Part shown: in pieces, positions 501 through 61,740 of the stretch
Layout of the letters: each line of letters begins with the position of its first letter
How positions within the stretch are numbered: the first letter of the stretch is position 1
Virus record (IMG/VR): IMGVR_UViG_2645727700_000001
Span: 1 to 64,000 of that record
Reading direction: 5' to 3' (one strand)
DNA: 64,000 bases
From: a virus
Taxonomy: Duplodnaviria > Heunggongvirae > Uroviricota > Caudoviricetes > Schitoviridae
Position numbers and translations under genes: made by a program
The notes under the pieces: generated by a model
The model's input: the letters and a program-made list of their open reading frames with translations, nothing else
Told to the model about the DNA's origin: nothing
Database searches by the model: none

Positions 501-1271
501 ATGCCTGTACATTTTGATATTTATGCACCTGACGGCTCCTTGCAGCTCAGTACCGAGACAAAACCTATTGGACGGCATAAAGAGTACATAGAATGGTTTG
601 ACGGTTCTAATGGTGCCCAATACGGCACTTATATTATTGACCCTGAAAATAAGCAGCTTATTGATCAAAGGCATAATAGAGCTTTCGGTTATCCAAGGGT
701 AACTATGAAAGATGGCTACATGTACTTTATGCAACTAGCTGATGGTGCAGTGGTTAGTTTTAGCCCCGATTATGGTACGTGTATGGGTATTAGGCAGCAT
801 TCTGGGCGAGTTCTTATGGCTGATGTAAGGGAGTATAACCCGATACCTCAGCCTAACGAGCACCTGCAGGTATTTAACCAACAAGGGCAAATGGTTTGGG
901 GTTCTGAATCACTTGCCCAATCAATCCAGTTAATTGATTGGCATACTATTTGGTTCGGAGATCACACCTATCATGGAGTACCTCAGCTATTCTTTGATGT
1001 ACCCCATGATTTAGATATGAATAAAGTATTCTTCTATGTAAGCATGAATAATGCCATGTTTGGTCCGCAAGCAACTGATTCCGTTGGTGTTACTCAGTTT
1101 CCGCTACTCTACCTTCGTAGAAGGGGGCATAGGATTTTCCTACTCCCTGATTTCTATACCTACTTTAATACAATGACCCGTTACTTAACTCAGAATTTTA
1201 ATGCCAAGCTTTCATCTGCAGCAGGTGGGGATTCATTTCAAGTTCTGGTTATGTATGTACCTAACCCTTAA
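501..1271 (+). CDS. hypothetical protein, member of a small paralog family; could be tail-associated
   Basis: 256-aa ORF; N-terminus MPVHFDIYAPDGSL resembles ORF 155..499; tightly packed same-strand block. Confidence 0.45.
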   Translation: MPVHFDIYAPDGSLQLSTETKPIGRHKEYIEWFDGSNGAQYGTYIIDPENKQLIDQRHNRAFGYPRVTMKDGYMYFMQLADGAVVSFSPDYGTCMGIRQHSGRVLMADVREYNPIPQPNEHLQVFNQQGQMVWGSESLAQSIQLIDWHTIWFGDHTYHGVPQLFFDVPHDLDMNKVFFYVSMNNAMFGPQATDSVGVTQFPLLYLRRRGHRIFLLPDFYTYFNTMTRYLTQNFNAKLSSAAGGDSFQVLVMYVPNP

Positions 1272-1334
1272 TACCCAATTAACAGTGTAACGATGGAACT
1301 CGTTACACTATCTTTTTCAGTCAAGGAATGACTT

Positions 1335-1892
1335 ATGCAACTCTACTTAATTAAACCTAATGGACAATTTGGTGGTCGTATTGAAGGCACAAAACTGGAA
1401 GTGCTTGAGCAAGTCCCGCCAGATTACACATCAACGCTCTTACCGCCGCCACGAGAAACAGATTACTGGAATGGCTCAAACTGGGTGAACATCGGCCCTG
1501 CGCCTTCTGTGTATATGGTTTATGACTATGACAAGAAAGCTTGGGTTGATACACGTGTACTTGAAGATGTTCAACGTTCACATTGGGATTCGATCAAGTT
1601 TCAGCGCAACATGGCTGAATACGGTGGTTTTACCCATGATGGTATTAAATATGACTCAGACCTTAATTCACAGTGCCGTATTAACTCAGCTTTAATTTTA
1701 GGCGAACCTGTTCAATGGACTACAGCAGATGAAGGGGTAGTGGACTTCACTGTTGAGGAGTTCCGTGACTTGGCTAAATCTATGGCCGATCACATCCAAC
1801 GTGTACATGCTGCAGGTCGTGTAGCTCGCGCTGCAATCTACGATGCAACTACTGTTGCTGAGGTTGAAGCTGTTAAATTCTTTGTGGGGTAA
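1335..1892 (+). CDS. hypothetical protein
   Basis: 185-aa ORF; SD-like AAGGAAT upstream; N-terminal IKPNGQFGG loosely resembles the upstream paralogs. Confidence 0.45.
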   Translation: MQLYLIKPNGQFGGRIEGTKLEVLEQVPPDYTSTLLPPPRETDYWNGSNWVNIGPAPSVYMVYDYDKKAWVDTRVLEDVQRSHWDSIKFQRNMAEYGGFTHDGIKYDSDLNSQCRINSALILGEPVQWTTADEGVVDFTVEEFRDLAKSMADHIQRVHAAGRVARAAIYDATTVAEVEAVKFFVG

Positions 1893-1894
1893 TT

Positions 1895-2728
1895 ATGCGG
1901 CAAGTCATTGGGGTTGGTGTACAACCCAACGATAAGAAAGGAGATCCTGCAAGAACCGGTATTCAGAAAGCCAATATGAACTTTCTGGAACTGTGGTCGT
2001 TTTTGGCAGGGTATTTGGGAGCAGATAAGCTTCCAGATGCAATTCCAGTACTCCGAGGGGGTACAGGAGCAACTACTGCGGAAGGTGCACGTAAAGCCTT
2101 AGGTATTGGAGATGCTGCAACTAAAGCAGTGGGTAATGAGGAAGGTAATTTGTTTGTGGTGGGAACAGTTGGTATTGGTACTGACTTGGCACCGACCACT
2201 CTACAATCTAAGCAGTCTAAACCAAACCAGTTTAAATCAGGTGAATTCACTTGGCTTAACTCAGATCGTATGACGGCTTTGACTCTCGGTACACGTGATG
2301 CAGGTATCAAGGCTCAGTTTGGTATTCGTGACGTTACCACTGTACCTACTTGCTCTTACCGTGGCTCTCGTGCAGGGACAGGTGAATTTAGTCCATGGTT
2401 TGATCTGTATGGTGGTTCTAATGCAATCACTACCGTAAATGGCAACATCAAGGCAGCGAACAACTCACTGCGTTTGTACCATGATGAAGCGGTGACTCAG
2501 TACGGGGAGAAAGTCTTTTCTTCGTTCAGAGATGGTGTGTATACGTTACTCGCTACAAACCTTGACACATCAAATTGGACTTTAGAAGTTCCAATGGATT
2601 ATAAAGGTGTCGTTGAATTTGAAGCGGCAGTAGCACAGGCAGGAAGCTCGGTTACTGTTACCGTCACTAAAGGCGGTAAACCGTTTCAGATTCCTAAAGG
2701 TAAATGGATTGACCTTCATATTAAGTAA
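1895..2728 (+). CDS. hypothetical protein, possibly a virion/tail component
   Basis: 277-aa ORF directly abutting the previous gene; Gly/Thr-rich segments. Confidence 0.4.
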   Translation: MRQVIGVGVQPNDKKGDPARTGIQKANMNFLELWSFLAGYLGADKLPDAIPVLRGGTGATTAEGARKALGIGDAATKAVGNEEGNLFVVGTVGIGTDLAPTTLQSKQSKPNQFKSGEFTWLNSDRMTALTLGTRDAGIKAQFGIRDVTTVPTCSYRGSRAGTGEFSPWFDLYGGSNAITTVNGNIKAANNSLRLYHDEAVTQYGEKVFSSFRDGVYTLLATNLDTSNWTLEVPMDYKGVVEFEAAVAQAGSSVTVTVTKGGKPFQIPKGKWIDLHIK

Positions 2729-2731
2729 ATC

Positions 2732-2749
2732 TACTTACTTAAGTAAGTA
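2732..2749. promoter_or_regulatory. palindrome element TACTTACTTAAGTAAGTA, 9 bp upstream of the endolysin start
   Basis: 18-bp perfect palindrome. Confidence 0.5.
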
Positions 2750-2757
2750 AACAAGGA

Positions 2758-3291
2758 GTGTTTATGAAGATTATTACAATTACTGCCGGGCACAGTAATA
2801 CTGACCCTGGTGCAGTAAATGGAAAGCGTACAGAGGCGGAGATTGCTGCTGATATGCGTAACATGGTTGCTCACTACTTAAAGGCTGCAGGTGTGACTAT
2901 CCGTACTGATGGTACTGGTCAAACCAACTTGCCTTTACGTACTGCAATCACATTGGCCAAAGGTGCACATGCTGCAGTTGAGTTCCACTGTAATGCAGGG
3001 CCAGCCTCGGCTCGCGGTGTTGAAGCACTGTCACAAGCAAAGGACAAGGTACTGTCACAGAAGCTTTGTGGTGCAATCAATTCAGTATTGGGCATCCCGC
3101 TTCGTGGGGACAAAGGTTGGAAACCTGAGAACTCTGGCCAGCATACTCGCTTAGGTTATGTTCAGGCTGGTGGAATTGTTCTGGAACTATTCTTCATCTC
3201 AAACAACGCTGAATTGGCTTTGTGGGATGCTAAAAAATGGTTAGTAGCGAAAGCTGTAGCGGAGGTGTTAATTGCCGAAGCTCGTAGTTAA
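2758..3291 (+). CDS. N-acetylmuramoyl-L-alanine amidase (Amidase_3 family) endolysin
   Basis: N-terminal ITAGHSNTDPGAV matches the Amidase_3 motif xDxGHGGxDxGA; RBS AAGGAG 8 nt upstream; followed by spanin genes. Confidence 0.75.
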   Translation: MFMKIITITAGHSNTDPGAVNGKRTEAEIAADMRNMVAHYLKAAGVTIRTDGTGQTNLPLRTAITLAKGAHAAVEFHCNAGPASARGVEALSQAKDKVLSQKLCGAINSVLGIPLRGDKGWKPENSGQHTRLGYVQAGGIVLELFFISNNAELALWDAKKWLVAKAVAEVLIAEARS

Positions 3292-3745
3292 CGCTATTTG
3301 CTTTGTATTCAAGCACTTTTGGGCCTTCCTGAGTGCTTGGTTCTTTATCCTGTTATTGGTCAATGACTATCGACTGACTCAGGTAAAGCAAGAGTACAAA
3401 GATCATATCGAAACAACCGAATTTGCCATTAAGGATATGAACATCAAGTGGCAAACCAAAATGAACACTGCAGAGAAGGAATTTAATGAAAAAGTCGCTC
3501 AGCTTAATGCTGATAACGCTGTCCTCATTGATCGTGCTAACGGGTTGTCAGAGCAACTCAGTAAAGCTCAATCCAAATGGGTTACAGCTTCCAGCGAGTC
3601 CAAAACTGAGTACACCAATACCCTCAGTAACGTATTCAAACAGTGCGTCGCAGAATATAAAGACCTGGCAGTCAAAGCTGATGGACACGCACTTGATGCG
3701 ATAAGGTTAAAGCAAGCTTGGCCAACAACCGATGAACCTCCTTAA
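3272..3745 (+). CDS. i-spanin (Rz-like): N-terminal TM helix plus coiled-coil
   Basis: N-terminal hydrophobic segment FWAFLSAWFFILLLV followed by a charged coiled-coil region; overlaps the endolysin 3' end; contains an embedded lipoprotein ORF. Confidence 0.55.
   Translation: MPKLVVNAICFVFKHFWAFLSAWFFILLLVNDYRLTQVKQEYKDHIETTEFAIKDMNIKWQTKMNTAEKEFNEKVAQLNADNAVLIDRANGLSEQLSKAQSKWVTASSESKTEYTNTLSNVFKQCVAEYKDLAVKADGHALDAIRLKQAWPTTDEPP
3486..3704 (+). CDS. o-spanin (Rz1-like outer-membrane lipoprotein) embedded in another frame of the i-spanin gene
   Basis: Signal peptide with lipobox LTGC, proline-rich mature region (PASPKLSTPIP); wholly embedded in 3272..3745 in a different frame, the classic Rz/Rz1 arrangement. 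Confidence 0.55.
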   Translation: MKKSLSLMLITLSSLIVLTGCQSNSVKLNPNGLQLPASPKLSTPIPSVTYSNSASQNIKTWQSKLMDTHLMR

Positions 3746-4002
3746 AGGAGGTTCTGTTGTTCTGGGAGGCTATAAAAGGCTTCAAATGATTTAGGTTTGG
3801 TGGATGGTCCACCTTGTATAACAATAAGTAAATTCAGGATTGTATGTACTCTGACATACTCGTCATGTACAGAGATACGTCTTAGCCCATCTACCTTAGG
3901 GGCACTTTCAATTAATGAGTACAGCTTGGTTGTGTACTCATTAACAGTCTTATGAAGCCCTTTGGCTTCAATTTCTTTTGTTAGATCTTCAAATGATCGC
4001 AT
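3742..4002 (-). CDS. hypothetical protein
   Basis: 86-aa ORF convergent with the lysis cassette. Confidence 0.35.
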   Translation of the reverse strand: MRSFEDLTKEIEAKGLHKTVNEYTTKLYSLIESAPKVDGLRRISVHDEYVRVHTILNLLIVIQGGPSTKPKSFEAFYSLPEQQNLL

Positions 4003-4303
4003 GATGCACCAGATAGAATAAAAGCCCCATATAGGAGCTTTTATTGTGGTACATTACGAGTGCCTTAGCAATAAGGCTCAAGGCGACCCGTAATGGTTAG
4101 ACATTACCATAGACCTTGGAGTGTCTACGATGAACCGTGTACTCATCGTTGTCGTTACGTTGGTATTACTACTGATCAGTCAGGCAGTTTACTAACATAA
4201 CGGGGTGGGGTAGTTACAGCTACCTCACCTTCTCCAAGTAAATATAGAACAATATACCGCACAAATCAATATAACTATTTATTCTAATCTGTGTGGGTGG
4301 GGG

Positions 4304-4549
4304 TTACTTTGCAAGCTGGGTATCGTCAGCTAACCATTCTTCTTCTGTCATTTCCCCAAGATAGTTAATACTATCTAAAGTGATCGTAGTTGCATTAGGG
4401 TTTACACGCTTAGCATCTTGTAAAAATACATCAGAAATCATATTAATTGCTGCAGCACTTACATAGGGAAACTTGCGCTCAAGAACTAATGTATGGTGTG
4501 TACCGGCATCAGATGATGCTACACAAAAGTAACGATGTGATTTTGCCAT
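4304..4549 (-). CDS. hypothetical protein
   Basis: 81-aa ORF; start ATG overlaps the upstream gene's stop. Confidence 0.35.
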   Translation of the reverse strand: MAKSHRYFCVASSDAGTHHTLVLERKFPYVSAAAINMISDVFLQDAKRVNPNATTITLDSINYLGEMTEEEWLADDTQLAK

Positions 4550-5196
4550 TAGGCAGCTCCTTTAAGGGGTAGACCGAGCTGTTTATTAAGGTGGTTTTTG
4601 TCTAACAATGCAATAGGCATAGGTTGCGTTTTAACCACTGGTTCCAAATGTTCGATCAATGGCTTAACTTCTGGCCACTGTTCATATAATTTGAAGAAGT
4701 TGCCCGCAGTACGGATGATGTTGGTCATCTCCTCAGTGAACGCTTCATACTCTACGTCCAGGTCTACAAGATCTGATTGGATCTCAAGAATTTCATTGAT
4801 CTCTTTGTGGTCTACATGAAACTCAATCCATTTGTCAGACATGAAGTACGGGAATAGTTCAGCCTTTTCTAAGTAGATAACAAGATCTGACACCATATCA
4901 GTGCGTGTACGCTGTTCTGAGCCATAATAATAAGTGGTACGTTTAGCAACTTTAACCTTCTCGCCTTTGTCATCGACAATGCGTAGGTTGATTGAGCGTG
5001 TCTTTGGGAGCCAGCCGTTAGGGAGTTTCTCCATATCGCGCTTACGGTTTCCAAGAAGGATGTCATATACACGCTGAACTACAGCGTATTTCTTTTTGTT
5101 GAGTTCTGCTTTAAGTCCAGAGAACTTACGTTGTGCAAGTACGTTTACGATGTCGGTGATGTCACCTTGTTTGAATTTACGTTTTAATGGATTCAT
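4549..5196 (-). CDS. hypothetical protein
   Basis: 215-aa ORF with good coding texture. Confidence 0.45.
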   Translation of the reverse strand: MNPLKRKFKQGDITDIVNVLAQRKFSGLKAELNKKKYAVVQRVYDILLGNRKRDMEKLPNGWLPKTRSINLRIVDDKGEKVKVAKRTTYYYGSEQRTRTDMVSDLVIYLEKAELFPYFMSDKWIEFHVDHKEINEILEIQSDLVDLDVEYEAFTEEMTNIIRTAGNFFKLYEQWPEVKPLIEHLEPVVKTQPMPIALLDKNHLNKQLGLPLKGAA

Positions 5197-5208
5197 GTTT
5201 ATATCCTA

Positions 5209-5403
5209 TTACTTTGAATTTCTATAAGTTTTCTTGGCTTCTAAAAACCAATCAAGGGTTACGCAAATAGCTAGAAGCAGCACTAATGCGCTTCCAAAGA
5301 ACTCGGCACTAAAGCCCTGGGTAAAGTAAAAATAGCCTAAGCAAATTAGAGCCATTAACGTTATTAACAGTCCAAAAATGAACGAGATGTAAGGTAAGCG
5401 CAT
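5209..5403 (-). CDS. small membrane protein
   Basis: 64-aa ORF, two hydrophobic helices. Confidence 0.35.
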   Translation of the reverse strand: MRLPYISFIFGLLITLMALICLGYFYFTQGFSAEFFGSALVLLLAICVTLDWFLEAKKTYRNSK

Positions 5404-5413
5404 AGGTAAATTA

Positions 5414-5431
5414 AAAGCCCCGAAGGGCTTT
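5414..5431 (-). terminator. hairpin AAAGCCC-CGAA-GGGCTTT downstream of the SPFH gene
   Basis: 7-bp GC-rich stem, T-rich tail on the minus strand. Confidence 0.5.
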
Positions 5432-5513
5432 GTATAAAAGGTAAATGGGAAGCGTTAGTGCTTGGCCAACGGCCATGAGCACTAACGTTGATATGAAACA
5501 GATTAAGTACACA

Positions 5514-6335
5514 TTACTTAACGTTCAGAAGGGGAGTAGCGGAGCCGTTGCCCATAAGAACTGTATGCGTACCTTTACCTGCAAAGGCTTGTTGTGCATC
5601 AATTTCCATCTTGCGGATCAGCATTGGTGATAGAGATGCAGCAATCACACGGTTTGCATCAGCTTCGGCTTTTGCAGTGGTAAGGCGTACTTCTGCCTGT
5701 GCCAACGCTAAAGCTTTCTGACCTTCTGCACGGTTGATTTCAAATTGAACCTGAGCTGCCTGACGGATCGCTTCTTCTAAGCGTGGGTCAGTAGTTAATG
5801 AACGTACTGTCGCACCTGGAATATGGAATACGCCCGGCATTTCTTTATTCAAAGATTTCTGCAGTTCAGTCACTACATCTGCAGCAATTTCATCACGATG
5901 TTTATGGATCTCACCTGAATCAAACTTCGCTACAGCTTTGAAGATGGCTTCCTGAGCGTGACGCTTAACGTAACGTTCACCTACTACTTGGTCGCCGTCA
6001 GCGTTAAAAGATAAGTCACCTGCAAGTTTTGCAAGGGTCTCAGCCACACGGTTTGGGGCGATTGTGTAGCGCACATCAATGGCTACTTGTTGCATCGTTA
6101 CGTTGTCTTTGGTCTTTGGCTTAAGGTTTGCCAAAGGCACAGTCGTTTCACGTACACTGATTACTTTGATTGACTGGGTAAAAGTCTGATGAATACCAGG
6201 GGAAAGCTCCTCTGTTTTCATTTTGCCCAATGCCCAAGCTACGCCTACATGACCGGTTTCAACCTTTTCGTAGAAACAGCCTGTTAAGCCTAAAGTTGCG
6301 ATGCTGAGTGTGAGGATTCCAAGTAACTTTTTCAC
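5514..6335 (-). CDS. SPFH/band-7 (stomatin/prohibitin/HflKC-like) domain lipoprotein
   Basis: Signal peptide with lipobox LTGC; long Ala/Glu/Gln-rich coiled-coil typical of the SPFH C-terminal region (EINRAEGQKALALAQAEVRLTTAKAEADANRVIA). Confidence 0.65.
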   Translation of the reverse strand: MKKLLGILTLSIATLGLTGCFYEKVETGHVGVAWALGKMKTEELSPGIHQTFTQSIKVISVRETTVPLANLKPKTKDNVTMQQVAIDVRYTIAPNRVAETLAKLAGDLSFNADGDQVVGERYVKRHAQEAIFKAVAKFDSGEIHKHRDEIAADVVTELQKSLNKEMPGVFHIPGATVRSLTTDPRLEEAIRQAAQVQFEINRAEGQKALALAQAEVRLTTAKAEADANRVIAASLSPMLIRKMEIDAQQAFAGKGTHTVLMGNGSATPLLNVK

Positions 6336-6338
6336 TGT

Positions 6339-6521
6339 TTAAGTCCCTATAAGTGAGATTTGAATAATTAAGATGAACGCGATAATAGTTAGGCAGATTT
6401 GCCAACTGTATTTGTTGAGGATTTTCAATACAGTGCCACGTATGGCCTTGTTAGAAATTCCGAAGATAAGTGAAGCTAAAAGTGCGAGCACGAATAACCA
6501 TTTAATTGCCAATCCGAGCAT
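6339..6521 (-). CDS. small two-TM membrane protein immediately upstream of the SPFH gene (NfeD-like partner?)
   Basis: 60-aa ORF with two hydrophobic helices; 3-bp gap to the SPFH gene. Confidence 0.4.
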   Translation of the reverse strand: MLGLAIKWLFVLALLASLIFGISNKAIRGTVLKILNKYSWQICLTIIAFILIIQISLIGT

Positions 6522-6560
6522 TAATAACCCTCGCCCATGAGCAAACTCCTTTTAATTATC

Positions 6561-6578
6561 TACTTACTTAAGTAAGTA
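6561..6578. promoter_or_regulatory. palindrome element TACTTACTTAAGTAAGTA upstream of minus-strand gene 6339..6521
   Basis: 18-bp perfect palindrome. Confidence 0.5.
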
Positions 6579-6626
6579 AATAGGGTTAATAAAAAATGCT
6601 AGTGTGGTGCACTAACATTGGTGAGA

Positions 6627-6929
6627 TTAAGGAAGCAACTCTTTAAGTGCATCCACGTTATCTAAAGCCTTGAGAACTACATTAGCGGGTAGATAGTTCG
6701 CACGGAACTCCGTATCTGTATATGACTTAAAGCCACCATCTCGTTGCACGAGCCAGTCCCCTACATTCAAACGCATATTACCTTCTGGTAATGGCAGGAT
6801 CATGTATTCTAGTTTGCCTTCTCCTAAGACATTACTAGGGTATATGTACGTGCCATCAATAATCCATGATGTGAGGGCGTATGATGAATTAAGTGTTCCG
6901 GTAAATTGATGTGCTTTGATCATTTCCAA
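6627..6929 (-). CDS. hypothetical protein
   Basis: 100-aa ORF. Confidence 0.4.
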   Translation of the reverse strand: MEMIKAHQFTGTLNSSYALTSWIIDGTYIYPSNVLGEGKLEYMILPLPEGNMRLNVGDWLVQRDGGFKSYTDTEFRANYLPANVVLKALDNVDALKELLP

Positions 6930-6975
6930 GACCTAAGATATAAAACAGCCACGGACTGTCTCTGGGTGTTTACAT

Positions 6976-7623
6976 TTACTTTTGTGTATTGAGTTGCTTA
7001 ATAATCATTTGAGACCATGGTTCGTACGCAGAGATCTCATTTAGTAAGTCCTCTGGTGCAGACCATTTTTGATCTTGTGTTTCATCTGTTTCTGCAATTA
7101 GTTTGGTATCAACTACAACGTTAACCCACAAACCAATATGTACAGCAGATACAGGGTCATTTAGTACAGCTAAAGCTAACTGAACGCCTGAAAGATCTGG
7201 TGTAAGGAAGTAGCCAATTTCTTCGCTCAATTCACGTGTAATTGAAGCTTCGAGAGTTGCTACGGCATTAATATTGCCTTCGTCATCCAGCACCACATCC
7301 GCAATGTCAGTATGACCGCCAACGCCAATGCTACGAAGGGCTGCAAGGCCTTTCTCACCGCCGTTTGTACCGCGAGAGTATGAAAGGTACTTACCATCTT
7401 CATTCTGAATGGTTACATACCCCAAGATTTGCGGGAAAGCATGGGCGATGTCATAGTTCAAGAGGCTCTTGTCAGAGGCATCCACAACACTGCGGTTGAG
7501 AAAGTGGTAATTGTTAGCAAAAATCTTCGCTAAGTTAACTGGATAAATACCAGGTGTTTCCGGGTCAATGTGCGAGCACTTAAGTAATGCATCTAATGCT
7601 ACGCATAAAACTGCAGGTTTCAT
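6976..7623 (-). CDS. hypothetical protein
   Basis: 215-aa ORF; palindrome element about 50 bp upstream. Confidence 0.45.
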   Translation of the reverse strand: MKPAVLCVALDALLKCSHIDPETPGIYPVNLAKIFANNYHFLNRSVVDASDKSLLNYDIAHAFPQILGYVTIQNEDGKYLSYSRGTNGGEKGLAALRSIGVGGHTDIADVVLDDEGNINAVATLEASITRELSEEIGYFLTPDLSGVQLALAVLNDPVSAVHIGLWVNVVVDTKLIAETDETQDQKWSAPEDLLNEISAYEPWSQMIIKQLNTQK

Positions 7624-7665: not shown

Positions 7666-7688
7666 ATTTACTCAAGTAAGTAAGTAAA
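7666..7688. promoter_or_regulatory. degenerate palindrome element (TTACTCAAGTAAGTAAGTAA) upstream of minus gene 6976..7623
   Basis: imperfect copy of the family. Confidence 0.4.
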
Positions 7689-7695
7689 CAAAGGT

Positions 7696-7953
7696 TCAGA
7701 CGTTGATTTGAATGGTTTGGTTTTCGATCAAACGGATGATTAGAAAAAACGCTAAAGCGAAGGGAATAATCCAAAAAGGGAATAACAGTATCATACCTGC
7801 TTTTGCAAATAGCCTAAGCAAATCTACAACTGTATAAAATGTTTTAACCATTTGATTTAAAACTTCTTTCCCTATATCACTACATACTGTAGGATAGTTT
7901 TTCACGGCACGTTTGACTAAGTTTGATGTTTGAAAGAGTGTTGTAGGTCTCAT
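7696..7953 (-). CDS. small membrane protein
   Basis: 85-aa ORF with a hydrophobic segment ILLFPFWIIPFALAFFLII. Confidence 0.35.
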   Translation of the reverse strand: MRPTTLFQTSNLVKRAVKNYPTVCSDIGKEVLNQMVKTFYTVVDLLRLFAKAGMILLFPFWIIPFALAFFLIIRLIENQTIQINV

Positions 7954-8020: not shown

Positions 8021-8050
8021 CTTACTTGCTTACTTAATTACTTACTTGAT
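8021..8050. repeat. direct array of CTTACTT half-sites (cttacttgcttacttaattacttacttga) upstream of parA
   Basis: three direct half-site copies. Confidence 0.4.
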
Positions 8051-8062
8051 TAAATAGGTCTC

Positions 8063-8080
8063 ACAGAGAGACCGTAAAAA
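8063..8080. promoter_or_regulatory. dyad element GGTCTCAcagAGAGACC upstream of parA (putative operator), related to the downstream tandem array
   Basis: Imperfect inverted repeat 8 bp upstream of the parA start; same half-site as the 9596-9805 repeats. Confidence 0.5.
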
Positions 8081-8087
8081 TATAAAT

Positions 8088-8702
8088 ATGAAAACAGTGG
8101 TAATTGCATCCCGAAAGGGTGGGTCTGGAAAGACCACAAATGCGCGTAACTTTGCTGTTGCTTTGATAAAGCGTGGCAAGCGTGTTCTACTAATTGATAC
8201 TGACCTTCAAGGTACTCTATCAAAATGGTGGAATCGCCGTACTGTTGAAGACTTAGACTTATTAGTAGTGCCCTACAGCCAAATTAAAGAGGCTCAAGCT
8301 AGTGCACTACGTGCGGGGTATGACTATCTAATTATTGATACACCGCCGGACTCTAATGAGGCAATCGAAGGTACTGTCAGTATTGCTGACTTTATCTTGG
8401 TTCCTTGCAAAGCCAGTCCGGATGACATCGAAGCTGTTGTGGAAACGCATAAGCTGATTCAGAACGCTGGCAAAGACTTTACGTTTATTGTGAATGAGGC
8501 TAAGCCAAATACAAGCTTACTGACATTGGCATTAGAAACACTGTCACAGCTTGGGCCAATAGCACCAACACAATACAACTACATCTCACATCCTACATCT
8601 GCAGTGTCAGGCTCAACTGTAATTGATACAGAGCCAAGCTCTAAAGCTGCAGAAGATGTAGTCAAACTCACTAATTATGTACTCAGTCGCGTCGGAGAGT
8701 AA
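8088..8702 (+). CDS. parA: ParA/Soj-family partition ATPase (small, type Ib-like)
   Basis: Deviant Walker A KGGSGKTT and the LLIDTDLQGT motif (ParA D-x-D-P-Q-G signature); 204 aa without an N-terminal HTH. Confidence 0.8.
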   Translation: MKTVVIASRKGGSGKTTNARNFAVALIKRGKRVLLIDTDLQGTLSKWWNRRTVEDLDLLVVPYSQIKEAQASALRAGYDYLIIDTPPDSNEAIEGTVSIADFILVPCKASPDDIEAVVETHKLIQNAGKDFTFIVNEAKPNTSLLTLALETLSQLGPIAPTQYNYISHPTSAVSGSTVIDTEPSSKAAEDVVKLTNYVLSRVGE

Positions 8703-8704
8703 CA

Positions 8705-8950
8705 ATGGGCAAAGCACCTTTATCATTAGACAGTCTTAAACAGGTTGCTGAGCAATCTGCGCCTGCTCAAACTTCTGGCCAACCGGATGTGGTAAAATCA
8801 GATGCACCACAGGTTACAAAGCAGTTATCTGTTAAAGTAACCTTACCTGTGTATGAGCGTTTGCGTAAAGCTGCTTATACGCTTGAAATGTCGCATCAGG
8901 ACATTGGTTCGGATGCTGTTGCGGAATGGCTAACGAAAAATGGATTCTAA
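8705..8950 (+). CDS. small protein downstream of parA (candidate ParG/ParB-like centromere-binding partner)
   Basis: 81-aa ORF, 3 bp after parA, overlaps the next gene; position typical for a type Ib partner. Confidence 0.45.
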   Translation: MGKAPLSLDSLKQVAEQSAPAQTSGQPDVVKSDAPQVTKQLSVKVTLPVYERLRKAAYTLEMSHQDIGSDAVAEWLTKNGF

Positions 8951-9596
8951 TTTAGACGAACTTAAAGCACAGACTCAGTTCTTTCACCTATTTAAAGCCA
9001 TGTACGATTCAGGTGACGTGGCTCAAATGGGTTCACACGCGTTTAACGTGTATTGCTATATAAAGTCATGTGTTAATTACGAACGTCCAGATGCATTTCC
9101 GTCAATCGAGACGATCTGTAAAGCAACTGGCGTTTCTAGGGCTAATGTATTCAGATGTATTCCTGTCTTAGTAGAGATGGGCTACCTCACAAAGAATACA
9201 TCGGGTAGACATACAATCTACAGAGTGTGTGAGAGGATACCCATGTTAGATGAAAACGGCGATGTACAGGCTACAGCATCTTGGGAATACATCCCTAAAT
9301 ACGCTGTAAAAGCTGTATCAGAACTTAAAGAATTGATTCAATCATCAGGTGATGTTAATGCAGCTCGCTACATTCACATCGAACACTTACAAGTTATCGT
9401 ATCCAATATTGAATCTGGCGGCGTACAAAACATTGTAGCCGGGGACAATATTGATAATAGTACTACCAATGCTATTCATGTCACGCGTGAAAGCCAGACA
9501 CTTGAAGATCATTTAAATGACCTGGCACAGCAGGGCGATGGTTCTACTGCAGCTAAAATAAAGCGCGGTATTAAGAAGAAAACTTCAACTGGATAG
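8940..9596 (+). CDS. winged-helix/HTH DNA-binding protein (candidate Rep initiator or centromere-binding protein)
   Basis: HTH-like segment ICKATGVSRANVFRCIPVLVEMGYL; stop codon abuts the first of seven dyad repeats. Confidence 0.5.
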   Translation: MDSNLDELKAQTQFFHLFKAMYDSGDVAQMGSHAFNVYCYIKSCVNYERPDAFPSIETICKATGVSRANVFRCIPVLVEMGYLTKNTSGRHTIYRVCERIPMLDENGDVQATASWEYIPKYAVKAVSELKELIQSSGDVNAARYIHIEHLQVIVSNIESGGVQNIVAGDNIDNSTTNAIHVTRESQTLEDHLNDLAQQGDGSTAAKIKRGIKKKTSTG

Positions 9597-9805
9597 GTCT
9601 CATGGTGAGACCTTTTCTTTTTCTATTAGTCTCACAGTGAGACTGATGCATTTTTGATTGGTCTCACTGTGATACCTATTGATTTATAAAAATAGGTCTC
9701 AGTATGATACCTATAAGTAGAGTCTAGTCTCAGTGTGAGACTGAGTACCCTTAAAAGGGTCTCTATGTGAGACTAATTAAGCCTTAATAGGTCTCACTGT
9801 GATAC
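9596..9805. repeat. array of seven about 17-bp dyad repeats RGTCTCA-N3-TGAKACY spaced about 30-33 bp apart (putative iterons or partition centromere)
   Basis: Copies near 9596, 9628, 9659, 9696, 9726, 9762, 9789; 6-7 bp stems with 3-nt spacers; the first copy is followed by TTTTCTTTTTC. Confidence 0.7.
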
Positions 9806-9918
9806 CCTAAAAAGAACTCTTTAGATTCTAAATTTAAAAAGATCTTTTTATGGTCTAGAACGGTTAAAATCTGTGGATAAAAATACCTACTTATCCACAA
9901 AATGCAGGAAATCTTAAA

Positions 9919-10104
9919 ATGGCTAAATTCCACGAACCAATTGCTTACTTGAACGAAGAAGAATTAGAACGAGCAATTCAATGGGGTACAATCCAACGTG
10001 AAGAAGCTCAGAAATCAGAAGATCAAATTTGGGATGAGTACGATGATCGTATTCTCCATACTTTGAATTCAAAACTTAAACAAATGCGAGGCTCTGTAGC
10101 TTGA
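9919..10104 (+). CDS. small hypothetical protein flanked by DnaA boxes
   Basis: 61-aa ORF with SD-like AGGAAAT upstream; may be non-coding origin DNA. Confidence 0.3.
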   Translation: MAKFHEPIAYLNEEELERAIQWGTIQREEAQKSEDQIWDEYDDRILHTLNSKLKQMRGSVA

Positions 10105-10150
10105 CTTAATCTTTGATTACAGTAGACTTGTTTTAAAGGTTAAATCCTTT

Positions 10151-10192
10151 AATTGGTCTGAAAAACCCTAGGAGCGAAGGCTTTTAGGGTTT
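10151..10192 (+). terminator. hairpin AAACCCTA...TAGGGTTT followed by TTTTCTTT
   Basis: stem-loop plus T-run after ORF 9919..10104. Confidence 0.5.
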
Positions 10193-10488
10193 TTCTTTAT
10201 GTATCGCAGTTAACATAATGTGCGTTATGCGAAATGTAATTACACAATTATCCACAATACTTTTTGAAAACAACAAGTTATGAATTCAAAAACTTTTTTA
10301 TGAAAACTATACTTATCCACAGTTGGAACATTTTGCCAATCAACGTGAATACCAAGCTTTAATTTGGCACTCACTATGCGTTGTAAACAGATTTTTATAG
10401 TACGAAGCTGAATGGCCACTGGTACACTTACGAGCACGTTCAGCAGCCGAAGGACTTAATACAATTGGTTTACCGCAGAGTTTACAGC

Positions 10489-14013: not shown

Positions 14014-14044
14014 TCATAGTTTTACTTATTTACTTACTCAAGTA
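14014..14044. promoter_or_regulatory. palindrome-family element (TTACTTATTTACTTACTCAAGTAAGTAAGTAA) upstream of minus gene 13756..13980
   Basis: extended imperfect palindrome. Confidence 0.45.
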
Positions 14045-14077
14045 AGTAAGTAAATAAAGTTTTTAAATGTTCAAAGA

Positions 14078-23759: not shown

Positions 23760-23788
23760 TTTAAGTTTACCTTTAATTACTTAATTGC

Positions 23789-23808
23789 TTACTTACTTAA
23801 GTAAGTAA
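23789..23808. promoter_or_regulatory. 20-bp perfect palindrome TTACTTACTTAAGTAAGTAA upstream of the AAA+ ATPase gene
   Basis: perfect palindrome 30 bp upstream of the start. Confidence 0.5.
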
Positions 23809-24377: not shown

Positions 24378-24576
24378 GTCCTTATGGATGAAGTTAGGCT
24401 ATAGGGCTGCTTCGTCAAAAAGGACTCTTTTAGTACTTTTAGTATATCGGTTTAGTAGTTTCGTCAGACTGTGTGCGAGACCATTAAAGTACGCAAGAGT
24501 CCTGTGACTTTGCATCTCATTTTAGTGAGCGAAGCTCACCTAGTAAATGCATAGTGGGCGAAACTTACACACTTAA

Positions 24577-28536: not shown

Positions 28537-29001
28537 AGACTATCGGTAATGTATCGGACAAGGGAAAAGGAATATTGAGATATAGGTAGCCCAGACTATA
28601 TGGTAACAACTAAGTGTTCTGTGTCAGAACTCCCTAGCTCTCTCCCTAACCCTTCCAGTGTGAACAAAGTTTGCACAGTACTAAGAGTGCTATCCCAAAG
28701 GAATGAGAGTGCTGAGCTTGAGTGAGGATGCATACCGTTTATTCTAAACGGGACTGTCCCTCTCTACGCTCTACTGTGTATGGCCTGACCGATGTGTATA
28801 TGTGTACGTTGTGTATTGTCTAAAAAAGAGATCCCCATACCCGAAGGTATGAGGACATTGGTTAAGCTGCTTGAGCTTTGAGTCGAGCTTGTTTGAATAG
28901 CTCTGAGTTACGTGCTCGGTTCATGAGAGTTCTATCCATATCTGGAAGTCTTCCCATTACTGCGAGTTTACGAATGAGTACTGATAGGCATAGTGCTTGC
29001 T

Positions 29002-30047: not shown

Positions 30048-30075
30048 TTACTTACTTACCTACTTACTTAAGTAC
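30048..30075. promoter_or_regulatory. palindrome-family element (TTACTTACTTACCTACTTACTTAAGTA) upstream of 30105 gene
   Basis: direct plus inverted half-sites. Confidence 0.4.
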
Positions 30076-38266: not shown

Positions 38267-38298
38267 TTACTTACTTAAGTAAGTATGTAAGCAAGTAA
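38267..38298. promoter_or_regulatory. palindrome TACTTACTTAAGTAAGTA plus downstream GTAAG repeats, immediately after the MCP stop
   Basis: 18-bp perfect palindrome. Confidence 0.5.
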
Positions 38299-45618: not shown

Positions 45619-45626
45619 ATTTACTT

Positions 45627-45644
45627 ACTTACTTAAGTAAGTAT
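45627..45644. promoter_or_regulatory. palindrome TACTTACTTAAGTAAGTA between the SLT gene and the vRNAP gene
   Basis: 18-bp perfect palindrome. Confidence 0.5.
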
Positions 45645-58595: not shown

Positions 58596-58636
58596 ATTTC
58601 CTTGTCTTGAGTTAAGTAAGTAAGTAGATAAGTAAA
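58596..58636. repeat. direct array of AAGTAAGTA half-sites upstream of the SSB-like gene
   Basis: gttaagtaagtaagtagataagtaaataagtaat. Confidence 0.4.
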
Positions 58637-58712
58637 TAAGTAATTGCGTAGCGAGAGACTACAGAGGAACTAATAGAATGTCTATTAGTTCCATGGGTTG
58701 ATTGCGTAGTAT

Positions 58713-61690: not shown

Positions 61691-61714
61691 TATGATTATC
61701 CTAATTTAAGTAAG

Positions 61715-61740
61715 TAATTAAGTAAGTAAAATTAAAGAAC
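61715..61740. repeat. two direct copies of TTAAGTAAGTAA upstream of the primase-like gene
   Basis: ttaagtaagtaattaagtaagtaa. Confidence 0.4.

Follow-up and report, generated by a model that had tools for sequence, protein, structure and literature searches.

A dyad array behind a winged-helix gene of an N4-like Acinetobacter phage as likely iterons of a plasmid-type origin

Introduction

What could an array of phased palindromes be doing in the genome of an N4-like phage? Phages of this group (Schitoviridae) are treated as obligately lytic, also where they are considered as therapy candidates against Acinetobacter baumannii. The array in question lies at 9596–9806 of IMG/VR virus record IMGVR_UViG_2645727700_000001, of which positions 1 to 64,000 were analysed (64,000 nucleotides, hereafter the window). 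The window belongs to an N4-like phage and carries an open reading frame (ORF) for a virion RNA polymerase (vRNAP) of 3403 aa, whose polymerase region is about 33% identical at most to known vRNAPs. A preliminary description of the window had noticed the tandem dyads and read them as iterons or as a partition centromere. We found that they stand in a cassette with the order parA (ParF-like), a gene for a ParG-like ribbon-helix-helix (RHH) protein, a gene for a winged-helix protein with an HTH_36 domain (rep), the seven dyads, an A/T-rich region and DnaA boxes. The array is likely to represent the iterons of a plasmid-type (theta) origin within an accessory maintenance cassette of this N4-like Acinetobacter phage.

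Results

Anatomy of the dyad array

The array consists of seven dyads of 17 bp each, starting at 9596, 9628, 9660, 9695, 9726, 9758 and 9790. When the window was searched with GGTCTCANNNTGAGACC, allowing up to two mismatches, eight matches were obtained, seven of them in the array, against 0.21 expected, and no more than two occurred in any of 100 shuffles; the tandem dyads noticed earlier are thus real. The half-site hexamers are clustered as well, with 14 of the 86 in the window falling within one 500-bp bin at the array. The start-to-start distances are 32, 32, 35, 31, 32 and 32 bp, with a mean of 32.3 bp or about 3.1 helical turns, so that the 30–33-bp spacing given before describes five of the six intervals and misses the one of 35 bp. 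The conserved core is GGTMTC-N5-GAKACC, often flanked by TA on both sides. Left arms are GGTCTC or AGTCTC only, while right arms are GAGACC, GAGACT or GATACC; the one-arm mismatch GATACC, which had already been pointed out, is found in three copies, AGTCTC/GAGACT in two and GGTCTCT/GAGACT in one, and three copies are perfect palindromes. In order, the sites are GGTCTCATGGTGAGACC (iteron 1, 9596–9612), AGTCTCACAGTGAGACT (iteron 2, 9628–9644), GGTCTCACTGTGATACC (iteron 3, 9660–9676), GGTCTCAGTATGATACC (iteron 4, 9695–9711), AGTCTCAGTGTGAGACT (iteron 5, 9726–9742), GGTCTCTATGTGAGACT (iteron 6, 9758–9774) and again GGTCTCACTGTGATACC (iteron 7, 9790–9806). The spacers, checked as possible sites of a second protein, contain no common motif, and Rfam gave nothing above threshold, just miRNA-precursor noise that stems from the palindromes.

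The first base of the array is the last base of the winged-helix stop codon, so iteron 1 overlaps the end of rep, the third gene of the operon. Iteron 1 is followed on its 3' side by a T-run (TTTTCTTTTTC), folds with −6.8 kcal/mol and was scored terminator-like. It probably also terminates the operon, as had been suggested, and the suggestion is plausible on these grounds.

Hairpins of another kind were considered as well, since the dyads could be N4-style promoters for the vRNAP or extruded cruciforms. Like N4 early promoters, each dyad offers on paper a short stem (7 bp) with a 3-nt loop, three copies are perfect palindromes, and the phage encodes a vRNAP. However, the seven loops (TGG, CAG, CTG, GTA, GTG, ATG and CTG) vary and are closed by A–T pairs, whereas N4 promoters need a purine at −11, G at −10, G at −8, C at +1 and a GC-rich heptamer (PMC4496689). 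Neither loop nor stem bases are conserved: at position 4 of the arms, 11 of 31 dyads have an uncompensated mismatch. Folding energies of the seven copies range from −6.8 to −1.7 kcal/mol, and two of them (iterons 3 and 7) are no better than shuffled sequence. Moreover, the sites are symmetric as double-stranded DNA, flanking TA included, they lie about 20 kb away from the expected early region, and the same architecture is found in plasmids and genomic islands that have neither a phage nor a vRNAP context. The hairpin interpretation, which the preliminary description had correctly rejected, is therefore extremely improbable.

An A/T-rich stretch and DnaA boxes adjoin the last dyad

Two elements that the preliminary description had not noticed, an A/T-rich element and inverted DnaA boxes, decide between an origin and a centromere. 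The stretch 9807–9871 on the plus strand begins with CTAAAAAGA (9807–9815), which abuts the last iteron, and contains the palindrome TAAAAAGATCTTTTTA at 9835–9850; its first 60 bp are 75% A+T, while the window as a whole has 56%. Two relatives, L006 and L011, likewise have TTTAAAAAGATC. We propose this stretch as the putative DNA-unwinding element. It is followed by two perfect DnaA boxes in inverted orientation at 9872–9899, TGTGGATAA at 9872–9880 and TTATCCACA at 9891–9899, and by two further perfect boxes on the plus strand at 10248–10256 and 10313–10321. Perfect TTATCCACA boxes occur four times in the 64 kb, as compared to 0.61 expected, and all four fall within the 450 bp from 9872 to 10321. 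Boxes are present at the equivalent place in most relatives. By its sequence, such a cluster of four boxes beside the array is a classical origin signature. Phased repeats about 32 bp apart beside a presumed initiator gene, an adjacent A/T-rich element (9807–9871) and host DnaA boxes (9872–10321), as expected of a theta origin, are thus all found here.

The dyads accompany the winged-helix gene in phages, plasmids and bacterial genomes

Homologues of the winged-helix protein were collected at about 40 loci, comprising five phage lineages, the Polaromonas plasmid pA29BJ2, 15 loci in bacterial genomes and 21 IMG/VR contigs; relatives' loci are labelled L002–L019, with L009 standing for the A. 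baumannii "plasmid" pRBH2-3 (NZ_CP110465.1). The wider family came from an alignment-based scan, while a single-protein scan of IMG/VR found nothing. Nucleotide searches with the cassette against phages and plasmids gave no match, and exact look-ups returned no contig for the window's winged-helix protein and only a 2-kb Logan contig for ParA.

Close homologues are few, and all of them stand in the same three-gene cassette, namely in N4-like contigs, in Acinetobacter phage vB_IME_Ab2712 and in pRBH2-3. Dyads of the same type follow the stop codon in every case with a spacing of 31–33 bp, and their specificity depends on the lineage, being GGTCTC, GGTATC, a mixture of both, or GGTCTA (L007). 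In pA29BJ2 (104 kb), the same cassette is followed by three CCCTTA-N4-TAAGGG dyads interleaved with DnaA boxes, and no other rep gene is annotated in 100 of the 104 kb. The 15 bacterial-genome loci belong to Paraburkholderia, Burkholderia, Pseudomonas, Stutzerimonas and Methylotenera. Most of them, like most of the IMG/VR contigs, have two to six lineage-specific dyads after the stop codon, mostly 32–33 bp apart; for example, AGCTCA-N3-TGAGCT, GGTGACA-N4-TGTCA, GGTGCA-N5-TGCACC and GGTCTC-N5-GAGACC. Over all the relatives inspected, the dyads are mostly 31–34 bp apart. Directly 3' of the last dyad, 15 of 19 loci and the majority of the viral contigs have CTAAA(A/G)AGA, followed by an A/T-rich stretch and, often, by a DnaA box at a further 40–65 bp. 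Across the roughly 40 loci, the dyads and their surroundings are therefore conserved and occur together with the winged-helix gene, and the iteron reading put forward in the preliminary description is borne out by this conserved context of initiator-like gene, A/T-rich stretch and DnaA boxes.

The partition genes, in contrast, are dispensable for the presence of dyads. ParA is absent within 3.5 kb at 12 of the 15 genome loci, a ParG-like ORF was found at none of the 15, and about half of the 21 viral contigs have no adjacent ParA or ParG-like gene while retaining the dyads. Because the dyads persist without both genes, they belong to the winged-helix gene and not to the partition genes.

The module occurs in diverse surroundings. 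In Pseudomonas and Stutzerimonas it adjoins a tyrosine integrase. In Methylotenera and related loci (L014, L017 and L019, at about 3100–4450), the winged-helix gene with its origin of dyads and DnaA boxes is placed between virB3 and virB4, an unusual site for a replicon module, and the surrounding type IV secretion cluster also carries partition genes of the IncC/KorB type. In pRBH2-3 and Ab2712, an ORF-free stretch of about 340 bp with higher G+C (7300–7640 in L009), possibly a non-coding RNA, lies between the origin region and an extra dyad (7726–7742) with a DnaA box (7914–7922).

Directly after the first two DnaA boxes, the window encodes a 61-aa ORF on the plus strand (9919–10104) that matches neither Pfam nor PHROG, and a strong intrinsic-terminator-like hairpin with a 16-bp stem (10160–10195, plus strand) closes the unit after it. 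A small ORF occupies the same position in L006 (5837–6037) and in pRBH2-3 (6786–6989 in L009). It might be argued from this conserved ORF that the winged-helix protein is a mere repressor and that the dyads, without any part in replication, form a multi-operator for the 61-aa gene and the parA operon; the fold of the protein matches MarR/ArsR-type regulators, and an operator-like dyad is placed at the parA promoter (see below). But the small ORF is missing in L002–L005 and in the genomic islands, where the array is kept; a layout in which two to seven phased sites lead into a conserved A/T-rich element and DnaA boxes is that of an origin, not of an operator; and the module is the only replicon candidate on pA29BJ2. 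We consider a purely regulatory role very improbable.

A ParF/ParG-like pair precedes the winged-helix gene

The first gene of the operon, parA (8088–8702, plus strand), encodes a ParF-like Walker partition ATPase of 204 aa with Pfam matches to AAA_31/CbiA/VirC1, an NCBIfam match to ParA_partition (4e-43, under the curated cut-off) and a match to ParF in the PDB (4dzz, 1.6e-10). The second (8705–8950, plus strand) encodes a protein of 81 aa with a flexible N-terminal tail and a C-terminal RHH. As a single sequence it matched nothing in Pfam or the PDB (phmmer against the PDB gave only noise), and a profile was needed to reach ParG: the best PDB match of a profile of seven homologues was ParG (1P94, E 0.0027, covering the whole RHH), followed by other RHH proteins. 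A small Walker ATPase without N-terminal helix-turn-helix and an RHH partner with a flexible tail are the components of type Ib partition, and judged by their sequences the two genes resemble a ParF/ParG pair.

This neighbourhood raises the question of whether the array is instead a partition centromere of the parS/parH kind, in which the 81-aa RHH protein would bind the phased dyads, form a segrosome and repress parA through an eighth dyad. A type Ib-like pair lies immediately beside the array, type Ib systems typically have phased repeats and, at the promoter of parA, an identical site, and RHH tetramers such as Arc, Mnt and CopG read dyads whose half-sites are one helical turn apart. On the other side, the dyad architecture is kept at many winged-helix loci that lack ParA and the ParG-like gene, and the A/T-rich element (15 of 19 loci) and DnaA boxes beside the last dyad play no part in a centromere. 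Position argues in the same direction, since the array lies downstream of the third gene and only the eighth dyad is located at the parA promoter. Upstream of parA, the usual place of a type Ib centromere, pA29BJ2 has a different repeat, GTAAAGAC, and all phage lineages compared have 8-bp periodic repeats. Finally, L006 and L007 share the predicted outward-facing residues of the RHH beta-strand, yet their half-sites differ. A centromere as the main function of the array, one of the two options offered earlier, is decidedly unlikely and is not upheld by these loci.

The eighth dyad itself exists: GGTCTCACAGAGAGACC at 8057–8073, with 14 nt between its end and the start codon of parA at 8088. The preliminary description had reported it at 8063–8080 with a gap of 8 nt, about 6 bp off. 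By sequence, it is probably an autoregulatory operator of the parA/parG-like/rep operon, as had been supposed. In L007, a matching dyad, AGTCTAcactaTAGACC, lies 17 nt upstream of the parA of that locus, and because it is of the GGTCTA type like the dyads of the L007 array, operator and array have changed together.

Upstream of the eighth dyad, Tandem Repeats Finder detected 4/8-bp periodic TTAC repeats at 8021–8052 (plus strand), one copy of an intergenic motif that recurs throughout the genome. They are probably the promoter of the parA operon and at the same time a candidate ParG-type operator or centromere. Comparable repeats with a period of 8–9 bp precede parA in L002, L006, L007 and the Polaromonas plasmid. 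Repeats of this kind before parA, which no cassette lacks, are likelier ParG-type sites than the dyad array is, as far as sequence can indicate.

The winged-helix protein and the half-sites it may read

The rep gene (8940–9596, plus strand) encodes 218 aa with one HTH_36 domain (Pfam, 4e-10), and we propose its product as an origin-binding initiator. The protein strongly matches an uncharacterised phage family (phrog_28562, 5e-46), with weaker PHROG matches to replication-initiator, O-like and DnaD-like families. It has no match to Rep_3, and NCBIfam gave no informative match for it or for the 81-aa protein. Aligned with hhalign, the family matches pKL1 Rep with a probability of 93% (E 2.7e-7) over the 56 columns of the HTH_36 domain only. 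Plasmid-borne HTH_36 initiators are known (PMC3832669, PMC4224046).

Within the wider family, the motif in the recognition helix tracks the half-site: AGCTCA goes with AQVKR, GTGACA with DRQVMR, GGTGCA with (K/R)RQ(I/V)IN, and GGTCTC with KAQVHR or RA(N/T)VFR. This tracking, and the co-occurrence of the dyads with the gene, support the winged-helix protein indirectly as the reader of the dyads. The independent lineages are too few for residue covariation to separate the RHH protein from the winged-helix protein in this role.

Discussion

Our results suggest that the seven dyads are origin iterons because the array sets in at the stop codon of rep and leads into CTAAAAAGA, a stretch of 75% A+T and inverted DnaA boxes; because relatives keep the dyads and the A/T-rich layout even without ParA and the ParG-like gene; and because pA29BJ2 shows no other annotated rep while HTH_36 initiators do occur on plasmids. 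From this arrangement we infer the dyad binder, the unwinding, the dependence on DnaA and the role in maintaining a plasmid state, which could fit together as follows. Dimers of the 218-aa protein would bind each 17-bp dyad, whose 6-bp half-sites are 11 bp apart from centre to centre. The phasing of about 32 bp, three helical turns, would place all dimers on one face of the helix and give a wrapped nucleoprotein complex. This complex, assisted by host DnaA bound to the inverted boxes at a distance of 65 bp, may open CTAAAAAGA and the A+T-rich stretch, allowing a helicase to be loaded. The same protein would also bind the single dyad at 8057–8073, between the promoter-like repeats and parA, and so autoregulate the operon, whose transcription probably ends at iteron 1 and its T-run. 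The ParF/ParG-like pair would segregate the copies, for which the 8-bp periodic repeats before parA are the most likely site.

Several points weigh against this interpretation. At the protein level, the name initiator draws on one generic winged-helix domain: the AlphaFold2 model is poor (pLDDT 58) and confident in the winged-helix core only, Foldseek against the PDB gives only generic MarR/ArsR/RIO2 winged helices with no structural link to Rep or O proteins, and lambda O does not align with the family (hhalign probability 0.1). The protein is small (about 200 aa in the family) and does not have the two-winged-helix architecture of classical Rep_3 initiators. The covariation of recognition helix and half-site is confounded by phylogeny, and RHH tetramers can read such dyads too, so that by analogy the ParG-like protein may contribute in the phages. 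Ab2712 and pRBH2-3 are without CTAAAAAGA, and their nearest perfect DnaA box is 1.2 kb off. The count of rep genes on pA29BJ2 comes from a PLSDB gene table that is incomplete. In the literature we found no binding, replication or stability experiment on the winged-helix family.

The module differs in components or layout from each of its closest known counterparts. As in ori-lambda, several dyad iterons (four in lambda, bound by dimers of O) are followed by an A-rich, strand-asymmetric unwinding region, and lambda O is likewise a protein with an N-terminal winged helix, to which the window's family gives weak O-like PHROG matches. The iterons here come after the gene, however, rather than inside it, their spacing is about 32 bp instead of 20–24 bp, the origin includes DnaA boxes, a gene for a P-like helicase loader is missing beside the array, and O homology is not detectable.

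In pSC101, R6K, RK2, F oriS and P1 oriR, rep is also located beside phased iterons, an A/T-rich element and DnaA boxes, with a linked partition operon and, at the promoter of rep, an inverted repeat that serves as autoregulatory operator. The iterons of such classical plasmids, however, are direct repeats of about 17–22 bp with a spacing of about 22 bp, read by monomers with two winged-helix domains, whereas here each iteron is a dyad, the spacing is three turns and the protein of about 200 aa has one HTH_36 domain. The array thus works, in our interpretation, like an iteron origin, yet it is no member of the Rep_3 replicon family.

The HTH_36 Reps of E. coli pKL1 and of Paracoccus pAES1, pAES7, pMARC3 and pMOS2 share the family of DNA-binding domain, and these plasmids have repeats and inverted repeats in an oriV beside rep (PMC3832669). 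The oriV of pKL1 is upstream of rep and includes an IHF box, and the similarity of the proteins is confined to the winged-helix domain; the plasmids named have two direct repeats, not two to seven phased dyads followed by CTAAAAAGA. Ori-lambda is the closest analogue in architecture, and HTH_36 Reps such as that of pKL1 are the closest studied initiators by domain.

The partition part of the cassette is comparable to parFGH of TP228, with a ParF-like ATPase, a ParG-like protein of tail and RHH, and short periodic repeats upstream of parA. In TP228, parH and the operator lie upstream of parF. The dyad array is downstream, goes with a third gene and is retained where ParA or the ParG-like gene is missing, and is therefore not the equivalent of parH.

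If the array is an origin, it could serve either a plasmid state or lytic growth. An origin for the lytic cycle, similar to lambda O/ori and feeding the phage polymerase and helicase, would agree with the position of the module next to phage replication genes (the DNA polymerase gene directly follows the DnaA boxes in L002–L005), with the promoter-like motif that the operon shares with other phage genes, and with the ori-lambda-like sequence of dyad iterons and A-rich stretch. The winged-helix gene, however, is present in only 1 of 162 phage records that have a vRNAP homologue, which indicates that N4-like lytic replication can do without it. Coupled partition genes are useful only in dividing cells, and both the DnaA boxes and the finding of this module in plasmids and integrative islands speak for theta replication that depends on the host. 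In addition, a related genome is recorded as a closed circular plasmid, and many contigs of about 74 kb come from isolate assemblies. A lytic-cycle origin is accordingly unlikely.

The window holds the vRNAP, structural and lysis genes together with the parA/parG-like/rep/ori cassette. pRBH2-3, a closed circular 75,126-bp "plasmid" of a clinical A. baumannii isolate, has the cassette and a homologue of the vRNAP, and is the only PLSDB record that matches the vRNAP query. Over 12.5 kb its identity to vB_IME_Ab2712, a phage isolated as virions, is 98.9%. Going by these sequence matches, the "plasmid" is really an N4-like phage genome. Among assemblies of A. baumannii isolates, about 150 contigs carry the Ab2712-type protein cluster, and the longest of them measure 72–77 kb. 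In NCBI, the window's own winged-helix protein is recorded from Acinetobacter sp. A47; the contig measures 74,273 bp, and of the protein RefSeq annotates a fragment of 117 aa only. The window probably derives from a bacterial isolate assembly rather than from a virion preparation.

We tentatively propose, with somewhat less confidence than doubt, that this N4-like Acinetobacter clade consists of phage-plasmids, which would be kept as low-copy extrachromosomal replicons by a DnaA-assisted dyad-iteron origin, an HTH_36 initiator and ParF/ParG-like partition. Like the phage-plasmids P1, N15, SSU5 and Acinetobacter AB_1, these phages combine a Rep/iteron origin with ParA-type partition and have been recovered as a plasmid record. 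Known phage-plasmids are myoviruses or siphoviruses, in contrast to the N4-like podovirus of about 74 kb with a virion RNA polymerase considered here; AB_1, a siphovirus of 101–122 kb, is a different element (PMC12977533). That an N4-like phage persists in the manner of a plasmid is reasonable to suppose, but unproven. The plasmid record and the isolate contigs may instead result from carrier-state infection or culture contamination, and no lysogeny switch was found in the phage. Our literature search retrieved no paper that links Schitoviridae or N4-like phages with phage-plasmids, and nothing relevant on pRBH2-3 or pA29BJ2.

Iteron origins are textbook biology, and the array alone presents no new principle; what is new is the variant, its distribution and, above all, the host genome. 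The variant is a compact, widespread and apparently uncharacterised type of replicon with an HTH_36 protein of about 200 aa, two to seven dyads at three-turn spacing, CTAAAAAGA, an A/T-rich stretch and often DnaA boxes, and it is common to plasmids, integrative islands and phages of beta- and gammaproteobacteria. Its presence with a type Ib partition pair in N4-like phages, which inject a virion RNA polymerase, is also new, as is the database evidence that many clinical Acinetobacter isolates contain such genomes as separate replicons of about 74 kb. If the phage-plasmid reading is true, a family regarded as strictly lytic would have its first case of a temperate-like lifestyle. Confirmation would change how Schitoviridae are judged for phage therapy, since phages able to persist as plasmids are not safe as "strictly lytic" agents. 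The phage-plasmids would gain a new morphotype, and vectors for Acinetobacter and Pseudomonas a small new replicon.

Some further features of these genomes are worth mentioning. The gene order of window positions 501–7623 (from a DUF4376 protein and an amidase to the parA cassette) is syntenic with pRBH2-3 and Ab2712, with vRNAPs only about 30% identical, and because of this synteny the cassette is probably ancestral to this Schitoviridae clade. The same region encodes an SPFH/Band-7 protein (5514–6335) and a protein with an Nmad5 nucleotide-modification domain (4549–5196). pRBH2-3 also encodes a serine recombinase (11189–11821 in L009), which could resolve multimers.

Genuine N4-type early promoters, that is, hairpins with a 3-nt G-N-A loop, were sought in the window, and no convincing family emerged; there are isolated candidates, such as GTGAGC-GAA-GCTCAC at 24525. 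Where the presumed early region ends, a minus-strand hairpin at 28820–28850 with a TTCG loop and a T-run (CCCATACCTTCGGGTATGGGGATCTCTTTTTT) likely acts as terminator.

The motif to which the TTAC repeats before parA belong, (TTAC)n-CTTAAG-(GTAA)n, has about 13 intergenic copies. They are 4-bp periodic, often palindromic, and are located 17–41 nt before start codons in the orientation of the gene. Copies include those at 7676–7687 (minus strand), 8021–8052, 14022–14053, 23767–23796, 30048–30067, 38279–38298 (minus), 45621–45632, 58616–58643 (minus) and 61710–61729 (minus). Tetramer boxes with 4-bp spacers are the format bound by ParG-type proteins. The dispersed copies are probably promoters of a phage RNA polymerase or a dispersed operator, and under the phage-plasmid reading they could be operators that silence the lytic programme. 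One copy precedes the vRNAP gene, just as one precedes parA.

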